Shown here: positions 946-64,000 of the stretch, piece after piece | Layout: every line of letters starts with the position of its first letter | Position numbering within the stretch: position 1 is the stretch's first letter | Source of the DNA: Antechinus flavipes | Taxonomy: Eukaryota | Assembly: GCF_016432865.1 (NCBI RefSeq) | Contig: NC_067403.1 | Coordinates: forward strand, 181,288,001 to 181,352,000 | DNA length: 64,000 bases | Reading direction: 5' to 3' | Position numbers and translations under genes: made by a program | Notes under the pieces: model-generated | Databases searched by the model: none | The model's input: only the letters and a program-made list of their open reading frames with translations | Told to the model about the DNA's origin: nothing

Positions 946-60932
<59,987 letters not shown>

Positions 60933-62227: not shown

Positions 62228-62841
62228 TTTTGTATCAGAAATATTTGGGAGTAGCCCTTTTCACCATGTAGAAGGGTAATTTACTCTATTTTGACTAAAA
62301 GTTTTCCTGACTTTTGACCACCTGAGGTATAGTGTGGAAAGCTCCTCATCTATTTATATATATAAGTAGGACATCAAGTAACTAGGGGAAAAATTGAATT
62401 TGGAGTCAAGAGGACCTGTGTTCTTGTTCAGGTTCTACTGGGTTCACTCCTTATGGGCAATTTCAACAGTCTCTCCTCTAAAAATTTGGGGATGTAGGGG
62501 AAGAGAGAGAAGGGAGGGCGGACTTGGACTAGACAACCTCTACATCCTTTATTGCTCTAAAACTAATCTTTTGATTAAGAGTGAAAATATTTCATTTTGA
62601 AAACAACTTTTTACTTATAAAATCGTTACAAATTTCAGAAGTATTTAAGTCAAAATGTATGTCCCTTTACATTATTCACTGACAATCATTAGGAAAGAAT
62701 CCACAATTGAAGAATAAAGTACAGTACTTGTTAAGCAGGCACTAGAGTGCCCTGATGAATGCTGTGGAAGCTACAAAATGTATATGACATCCCTTTCATG
62801 AAGCTTACAGTCTAATAAGGATATTGAGAAATCTTTCAACC

Positions 62842-63174
62842 TGAAGTCCAGAAGAGTTCAGGGAGAATCTCATTTCCCTGCTGGGTCCACAGACTGAGTA
62901 ACTTCAGGGACCAGCTGAAAAAGTTAAGTTTATTCAAAGCTAAGTAGGGGAGCAACTGTCTAGAAAATGACTCTTCAAACAAGGGTTTTTTTTTTTTAAA
63001 TAGCCCTTGTTCTATAGCACATATAGGGTTCAGCACCATAGCAGAGATGACAGCCAATAGGCAGCATACTCCAAGAAACAGAAACCAATTTGAGTTTGTT
63101 CTAAGGCTATCCACATTAAGGCACTCCCTAGGGCTCTCCCTGGAAGGTATGGCACTCATTTATATCCAGCACCA
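62842..63174 (-). mobile_element. Putative 3' LTR of the env-bearing provirus
   Basis: On the - strand: purine-rich AAAGGAACTTGGGGGAAA (63192-63175), then TG (63174), TATA-like CTATTTAAA (63003-62995), AATAAA (62934-62929) and ...CTTCA at 62842; 333 bp. No second LTR in the window for comparison. Confidence 0.5.
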
Positions 63175-63212
63175 TTTCCCCCAAGTTCCTTTGGAGTCTT
63201 GCCAAGTCAGGG

Positions 63213-64000
63213 CTACTCAGGGTCAGTGTTCATTAAGTTTTTCAACTTGGTAACATTCTGACTTATCTGATTCTTTTTATCGACATAGAAACAACACATG
63301 GTGTTGATAAATGCACAAACTCCTCCTTGTTGCGCTCGTTTCATATCTAATGCCATTCGGCTCTGAACCACCACCTGAGAAAGGGGGTCTACCTCTAGGC
63401 GAAGGTTGGAAATGGCATCTAGAGTGGCACTAAAACCTTCTTCCACAGCCGCAGACATATTCACTATTGCCTTCTCAATTTCCAAAATCCCAAGCCATGG
63501 GAACAAAGCTCGGGCAAAAGCATGGAATCCTGACGGTTTCTCAGCCAATGGATTAGTGGTACGTTTGTGAAATCGATTAATGAAGCTCCCGGAGTTGGAG
63601 ATAGATGTAGAGGTCAAAGTTTTATGTATCTGCAGATCAGGGACTAGATAGGCTATGGTGCATGTTCCTCCCCACCCTGGAGGTAAAGCCTTATAAGCAT
63701 AATCACCACATATGAAATAAAGCCCTGGCATGTGTGCAAGGGATAGAGTGAGTCTATTACCAGAATACTGAGCCCAAGTGGAATTGGGTGACCACCGTTC
63801 TTTCCCGTGTATCATCAAAGTACCTGTTTCAAAGTACCAAGGGCATCGCTTCTCAAAATTCTTCCACAAACGGGTCAAATGATGCCAAGAGGTGTCATTA
63901 TAGGCACAAAATATGGACTCAAATATCTGGTATAAAAGTGTGAAATTGACAAAAGATCCTTCACCAGGGCAACTTGACATATTAAAGCTTGTGTGGACAA
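63213..64000 (-). CDS. Endogenous retrovirus envelope ORF (class I / gamma-type TM), 5'-partial, ends before a transmembrane anchor
   Basis: SU C-terminal motif GLYFICGDYAYKALPPGWGGTC. Basic cleavage region RFHKR (63561-63575). Fusion-peptide-like FHAFARALFPWLGI, heptad region, ISD-like LSQVVVQSRMALDM and CX6CC (CAFINTMCC, 63291-63317). Five N-x-S/T sequons. The frame is open beyond the Met at 63980 to the edge (..VHTSFN-MSS). Confidence 0.92.
   Translation of the reverse strand, partial: VHTSFNMSSCPGEGSFVNFTLLYQIFESIFCAYNDTSWHHLTRLWKNFEKRCPWYFETGTLMIHGKERWSPNSTWAQYSGNRLTLSLAHMPGLYFICGDYAYKALPPGWGGTCTIAYLVPDLQIHKTLTSTSISNSGSFINRFHKRTTNPLAEKPSGFHAFARALFPWLGILEIEKAIVNMSAAVEEGFSATLDAISNLRLEVDPLSQVVVQSRMALDMKRAQQGGVCAFINTMCCFYVDKKNQISQNVTKLKNLMNTDPE

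Follow-up and report, generated by a model that had tools for sequence, protein, structure and literature searches.

The question raised by this locus is whether an open retroviral env frame, which reaches the right edge of a 64,000-nucleotide stretch of the Antechinus flavipes genome (the window, G000:C6:181288001-181352000) and ends just before the membrane anchor, is a captured gene or simply the remnant of a young provirus, and, if it is captured, how it is expressed and what its product does. Positions outside the window are given in segments L001 (beginning at 181350001) and L002 (beginning at 181360001) of the same contig. An ORF scan, extended rightward past the edge, placed the frame as follows.

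Window 63213..64000, minus strand: 3′ part of the pan-Mars-env2 ORF (residues 242-502 and the stop)
G000:C6:181351213-181352721 (L001:1213-2721), minus strand: whole pan-Mars-env2 ORF, reaching 721 bases past the window edge
L001:2721, minus strand: env ATG, from the extended ORF

As the original prediction held, 261 codons (window 63213-63998, minus strand) run free of stops to the edge, and this part of the frame matches Pfam TLV_coat (E 2e-19). Extension to the right, which had been proposed as a check, carried the open frame on to an ATG and gave a total ORF of 502 amino acids. An N-terminal leader, an SU CxxC and a splice acceptor were sought upstream and each is present, the leader being recognized by hydropathy rather than by a signal-peptide predictor, as the single hydrophobic peak in the protein, which starts at residue 11. 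The SU CxxC lies at residue 53 and the CX6CC motif at residue 469.

The stop falls exactly 25 residues past CX6CC and no hydrophobic 19-residue peak follows the leader, as had been claimed; in all four turtle and eagle relatives checked, CX6CC is followed by 112-114 residues, which include a strong hydrophobic peak. Searches by tblastn with five anchor-bearing relatives as queries yielded no anchor match past the env stop. One candidate for an anchor relic, a hydrophobic run in a different frame (window ~63030-63090), was ruled out, as it lies within the 3′ LTR relic (see below). Secretion is predicted because a predicted signal peptide occurs without an anchor, and on this basis the protein is probably secreted. 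The number of N-glycosylation sequons, put at five from the letters alone, is six in the window part and 12 across the whole protein. The AlphaFold model, with a mean pLDDT of 31.5, is unusable. Matches are generic both in the PDB (class I TM regions) and in the Atlas (TLV_coat clusters).

Judged by protein identity, the gene is almost certainly pan-Mars-env2. The original prediction was right in reading the frame as a captured, anchor-less Env and cited pan-Mars-env2 as an analogy only; the locus is in fact pan-Mars-env2 itself, 99% identical over the full length to the Sminthopsis GenBank entry AIX10010.1 (P0021), which has the same truncation (another entry is AIX10004.1), and the named entries and the locus show no difference at the protein level. 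The exact protein is placed in a 36-member cluster; among the 15 rows listed, six are named pan-Mars-Env2, eight have automatic HEMO-like or MER34-like names, and one is the exact protein, unnamed. In RefSeq, the marsupial protein is labelled HEMO-like. Full-length identity is 99% to Sminthopsis and Sarcophilus, 92-94% to other Australian marsupials and 88-89% to opossums, and the highest-scoring homologue is an opossum protein (88%). All 15 aligned marsupial proteins (5 opossum and 10 Australian, 88-99% identical) end in the same terminal column. The proposed lineage-specific capture is contradicted by orthologues in opossums, dasyurids, bilby, wombat, koala, wallaby, possum and glider, and pan-Mars-env2 is common to American and Australian marsupials. 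The gene itself is already known, reportedly from the description by Cornelis et al. in 2015 (PNAS 112:E487), and is not a new capture. In the available text of other papers, pan-Mars-env2 is described as conserved without an evident function (PMC13568524, a 2026 paper), is used as a known reference sequence (PMC11334065), and is loosely termed a syncytin under the name Env2 (PMC11239497, a genome paper).

An affinity to bird and reptile envs had also been suggested, and the nearest non-marsupial matches are indeed from turtles (30-37%) and, over the TM part, from an eagle (46%). Among the full-length relatives that were found, the closest (P0002-P0005, P0024-P0041) are multi-copy envs of sea and soft-shelled turtles, with 30-37% identity over SU and TM. 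These matches hint at a retrovirus lineage common to turtles and early marsupials.

Expression of env was followed in X20 and X21, two raw stranded RNA runs from one study of a related species (not from this genome), and in X18 contigs, which share 99+% identity with this genome. On the same strand as env, ~10 kb upstream of it, is SNORA24, beside a CpG island (the SNHG8 position). The elements of the transcript and its convergent neighbor are listed below.

L002:~3000-4500: CpG island, from a sequence scan
L002:~3283-3207, minus strand: host exon 1, with a TATA-like box and a pyrimidine-rich start, inside the CpG island
L002:2798-2668, minus strand: SNORA24 (Rfam RF00399, 141.7 bits, E 1e-27), in the intron between exons 1 and 2
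L002:2584-2546, minus strand: host exon 2, from reads, with a GT-AG border
L002:2342-2323 (20 bases) or 2342-2220, minus strand: host exon 3, from reads, with a GT-AG border
L001:3070, minus strand: env splice acceptor, from read junctions and a drop in depth
L001:2722-3070, minus strand: env 5′ UTR, 349 bases in the env exon, with eight short upstream ATGs (1-18 codons)
Window 62536..63212, minus strand: 3′ UTR of the env mRNA, from read depth (an X18 contig ends at L001:536)
Window 60537..60932, plus strand: last trypsin-domain exon of the convergent neighbor, ~1.6 kb from the 3′ end of the env mRNA
Window 57793-58206: trypsin-domain exon of the same neighbor, from a domain match

The env transcript that was looked for is present, with a stranded depth of ~15-50x over the env exon on the expected strand and of 2-4x beyond the acceptor at L001:3070 (X20, X21). 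Coverage by these reads extends over the env exon with its UTRs and over the host exons, which supports the presence of the same locus in the related species. Reads that run from the env acceptor into host exons 2 or 3 number at least 22 in X20 and at least nine in X21, together with one X18 contig, and the sites are GT-AG. Among the loose ends listed, env continues into exon 2 in eight X20 reads, nine X21 reads and one X18 contig, into exon 2 plus the 20-base exon 3 in eight X20 reads, and into the longer exon 3 in six X20 reads, the read-to-exon junctions having been matched by eye. Host exons 2 and 3 are therefore spliced to the env acceptor, and it is very probable that env RNA is spliced onto SNORA24 host-gene exons; the link to exon 1 is seen only in a decayed processed copy (L003, see below). 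The two motifs at exon 1 are what we take to be a TATA-like box and a pyrimidine-rich (TCT) initiator, and a CpG-island promoter has reportedly been noted before for the marsupial pan-Mars-env2 gene. The eight short upstream ATGs may limit translation or give translational control. Reads pass the AATAAA of the LTR itself (window 62934-62929) toward a second AATAAA ~380 bases further on (62553-62548), near which env transcripts appear to end. X20 has two further loose ends (L001:793, six reads, GC-rich; L001:2587, four reads), and X21 contains a few opposite-strand reads at L001:1066-1287.

Copy number in this genome was checked by DNA and protein searches, which found one intact match and two decayed processed copies, all counts being lower bounds. 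No other look-alike of any size turned up in these searches.

L003:4568-5668 (G000:C4:~133339570-133340670): processed copy, 79-81% DNA identity, 8 stops
L012:2779-3881 (G000:C4:~403840780-403841880): processed copy, 65% DNA identity, 7-8 stops per frame

In both, the match to env breaks off at its acceptor. L003 then carries, in order and without introns, exon 1 (matching from the pyrimidine-rich start onward), exon 2 (29/39), exon 3a (16/20, against 6/20 for either intron as controls) and the env exon, with the snoRNA intron missing between its exons 1 and 2; in L012, exon 2 adjoins the env exon. The score of the exon 2 match was reached by 0/500 shuffles in both copies, whereas that of exon 1 was reached by 0/500 in L003 (94, narrowly above the shuffle maximum of 87) and by 31/500 in L012. 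The intron before the env acceptor was matched in neither copy. L003 and L012 are retrocopies of the chimeric host-gene/env mRNA, and because they keep the same exon joints, the fusion transcript is old and was present in the germ line. They also serve as a neutral control for the decay rate of an unselected copy. Diagnostic residues (27 sites in all) give weak dating, with four Australian, no American and one other among five readable sites in L003, and three Australian, two American and one other among six in L012.

The convergent trypsin-domain neighbor is presumably PRSS12, and orthology to SNHG8 is based on SNORA24 together with this presumed neighborhood. Like the marsupial gene, SNHG8 hosts SNORA24, has short exons on either side of the snoRNA and lies under a CpG island. 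In the available text of PMC8416628, the human host of SNORA24 is the non-coding SNHG8 at 4q26 and has no protein-coding signature, whereas in the marsupial transcript the last exon is that of env, with its conserved 502 codons. A retrovirus of the marsupial ancestor, by landing behind SNORA24, would have made a non-coding host gene (SNHG8 in humans) protein-coding; the chance that this is both true and undescribed is about even. Among the papers listed, the literature search found no mention of a link between SNORA24 or SNHG8 and pan-Mars-env2, and excerpts of PMC10152393, PMC9367772 and PMC8003504 contributed nothing further; the texts or supplements of Cornelis 2015 and Heidmann 2017 (the HEMO paper) may already give the transcript structure, and the exons are probably annotated already, because RefSeq gives several transcripts per protein. 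The mode of expression may be the new part, and capture by the SNORA24 host gene is worth following. If the reading is true, one housekeeping transcript yields both a snoRNA for ribosome biogenesis and a secreted viral Env, the output of Env is tied to growth and ribosome synthesis, and an env was domesticated via the promoter of a snoRNA host, with the chimeric splice recorded in two old processed copies. The added anatomy names a likely promoter, that of the SNORA24 host gene, and predicts expression that is broad and growth-linked, not placenta-only. In addition, env knock-outs must spare SNORA24.

Remains of the provirus were sought on both sides of the env exon.

Window 62845..63179, minus strand: 3′ LTR relic, starting ~35 bases past the stop, with a 5′ boundary that is uncertain over its first ~90 bases
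L002:~2207-1930, minus strand: 5′ LTR relic, which aligns with the 3′ relic
L002:1926-1909, minus strand: primer-binding-site relic, 15/18 bases complementary to the 3′ end of tRNA-Leu

The 415 bases past the stop were aligned with 642 tiles over 82 kb, and the best tile, 11 kb upstream, scored 280 (206/290 aligned bases identical) against 153 for the best unrelated tile, a score reached by 0/1000 shuffles. An earlier alignment with lax gaps had given 174 vs a shuffle maximum of 162, and the stricter version was chosen after the lax one had been seen. Together with the primer site, the two stretches are read as 5′ and 3′ LTR relics with a primer-binding site, which places the provirus in sense orientation ~0.5 kb downstream of SNORA24. 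The corrected distance between the relics is ~0.37, from a gappy alignment, which at an assumed rate is consistent with many tens of millions of years. The anchor-coding part appears to have been deleted, because the 3′ LTR relic begins ~35 bases past the stop. Between the LTRs, six long and 12 short frames (with X at stops) matched no Pfam family, and five open stretches of two other proviruses, used as tblastn queries, matched nothing; integrase-like words are visible by eye only, as a pol relic without statistical support.

Selection on the env frame was checked against the X20 and X21 reads, and pN/pS was 0.14 (p 4e-5), an estimate for one close species pair from the differences listed only. 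Among the 19 fixed ORF differences listed between the genome and these reads, 13 are silent and six are replacements, and all six replacements agree with the residue in P0013; the indels listed are all outside the ORF (6/6). While gag and pol have decayed, env has kept its frame under purifying selection, minus the anchor-coding part.

These features are most simply combined, with a probability of roughly 0.8, in the reading that the locus is a domesticated anchor-less env on the SNORA24 host transcript, with a product that is likely secreted and likely acts, without fusing cells, as a ligand for a conserved protein of the host cell surface. A provirus landed in sense ~0.5 kb downstream of SNORA24, gag and pol decayed while purifying selection retained the env frame without its anchor, and host exons 2 and 3 are spliced to the env acceptor. 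The CpG promoter of the snoRNA host would have replaced that of the LTR and would give broad expression of the housekeeping type. The leader without an anchor would direct secretion, and the missing canonical cleavage site and altered heptad would preclude fusion. By analogy with suppressyn and Refrex-1, the Env would bind the receptor once used by the virus, which is probably a nutrient transporter, and its highly conserved TM ectodomain would hold it as an oligomer.

Cell-cell fusion by this Env is unlikely, because a canonical cleavage site is lacking, the heptad contains a proline, and the core and the ISD segment are altered. A canonical furin site (R-x-K/R-R) at the SU/TM border was found in 0/15 marsupial proteins. 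The heptad proline and a changed core position are present in 15/15, unlike in most or all of seven non-marsupial rows, and the ISD segment has a charged or polar residue in 15/15 where 7/7 non-marsupial rows are hydrophobic. Both the SU CxxC (residue 53) and a basic residue at the SU/TM border (384-387) are absent from 5/5 opossum rows and kept in 10/10 Australian rows, and processing may differ between the two groups. Expression of pan-Mars-env2 is said to have caused no cell-cell fusion (Cornelis 2015). Identity to opossum is 108/115 in the TM ectodomain vs 312/354 in SU; the loss of fusion features became fixed, yet no part has stayed more conserved than the TM ectodomain.

Known systems resemble parts of this arrangement. 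Suppressyn, Refrex-1, ERV3 env and CARenvV/ARTenvV are captures independent of pan-Mars-env2. HEMO (ERVMER34-1) of eutherians is full length and shed by cleavage, whereas the marsupial protein is genetically anchor-less; the HEMO locus presumably differs from that of pan-Mars-env2, and eutherian HEMO was not among the matches of two homologue searches, which were limited by a word index. As proposed for the marsupial gene, HEMO is an ancient captured env that has lost its LTR promoter, uses a cellular CpG island and gives a soluble product, as described in the available text (PMC8978518). The independent captures are likewise anchor-less, co-opted, non-fusogenic and soluble or predicted to be soluble, according to excerpts of PMC9604959, PMC13709493 and bioRxiv 2021.12.09.471612. 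Suppressyn binds ASCT2 and Refrex-1 binds CTR1, and in the same excerpted sources both are without the TM ectodomain, which pan-Mars-env2 has kept highly conserved (PMC13709493; bioRxiv 2021.12.09.471612). On this analogy, a receptor or transporter ligand is proposed tentatively, with slightly less than even confidence, as the main function. Simple receptor blocking does not account for the TM ectodomain being better conserved here than any other part.

In a rival reading, the same gene and transcript would have been selected for immune modulation via the TM ISD segment, for example in pregnancy or in pouch young, with SU as a carrier. The truncation leaves the whole ISD and CX6CC, TM is more conserved than SU in the comparison with opossum, and an ISD role has been suggested for HEMO (PMC8978518, in the text available). 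However, the charged or polar residue fixed in the ISD segment of 15/15 marsupials, where 7/7 non-marsupial rows are hydrophobic, argues against such a role, as does the strong conservation of SU as well, and this function is doubtful.

Antiviral restriction, in which the Env, as a secreted or ER-retained protein, would block the receptor used by related retroviruses, is likewise unlikely, and somewhat more so. Refrex-1 and suppressyn are precedents in the excerpts of PMC9604959, PMC13709493 and bioRxiv 2021.12.09.471612, and a housekeeping-type promoter would shield many tissues. An arms race would be expected to cause change or loss, whereas strong purifying selection is seen across all marsupials, and no close viral relative was found in the genome, where other env matches reach only 26-36% over the TM part. 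A secreted ligand of a conserved host protein remains the preferred reading.

A true syncytin that fuses placental cells is very improbable for a protein without a membrane anchor or canonical cleavage site, with a fixed heptad proline, and with the SU CxxC lost in 5/5 opossum rows. A young provirus with a 3′ deletion and a frame open by chance, the alternative offered in the original prediction, would account for the apparent loss of the anchor-coding part ~35 bases before the 3′ LTR relic and has next to no probability, because the gene is single as an intact copy with no near-identical copies, pN/pS is ~0.14 and the LTR relics are 71% alike, which also excludes a lineage-specific origin, and it is already refuted by the orthologues, the end point shared by 15/15 marsupial proteins, the unrecognizable gag/pol frame, and the 7-8 stops per frame of its processed copies.

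Genome-wide, ~80 weaker matches, at 26-36% identity across the TM region, belong to the envs of other ERV families, and many of these lie in long open frames. In the brushtail possum, two full-length copies (P0014, P0016) are annotated on contigs of different length and are a few residues apart, and one of them is possibly a recent duplicate or retrocopy.
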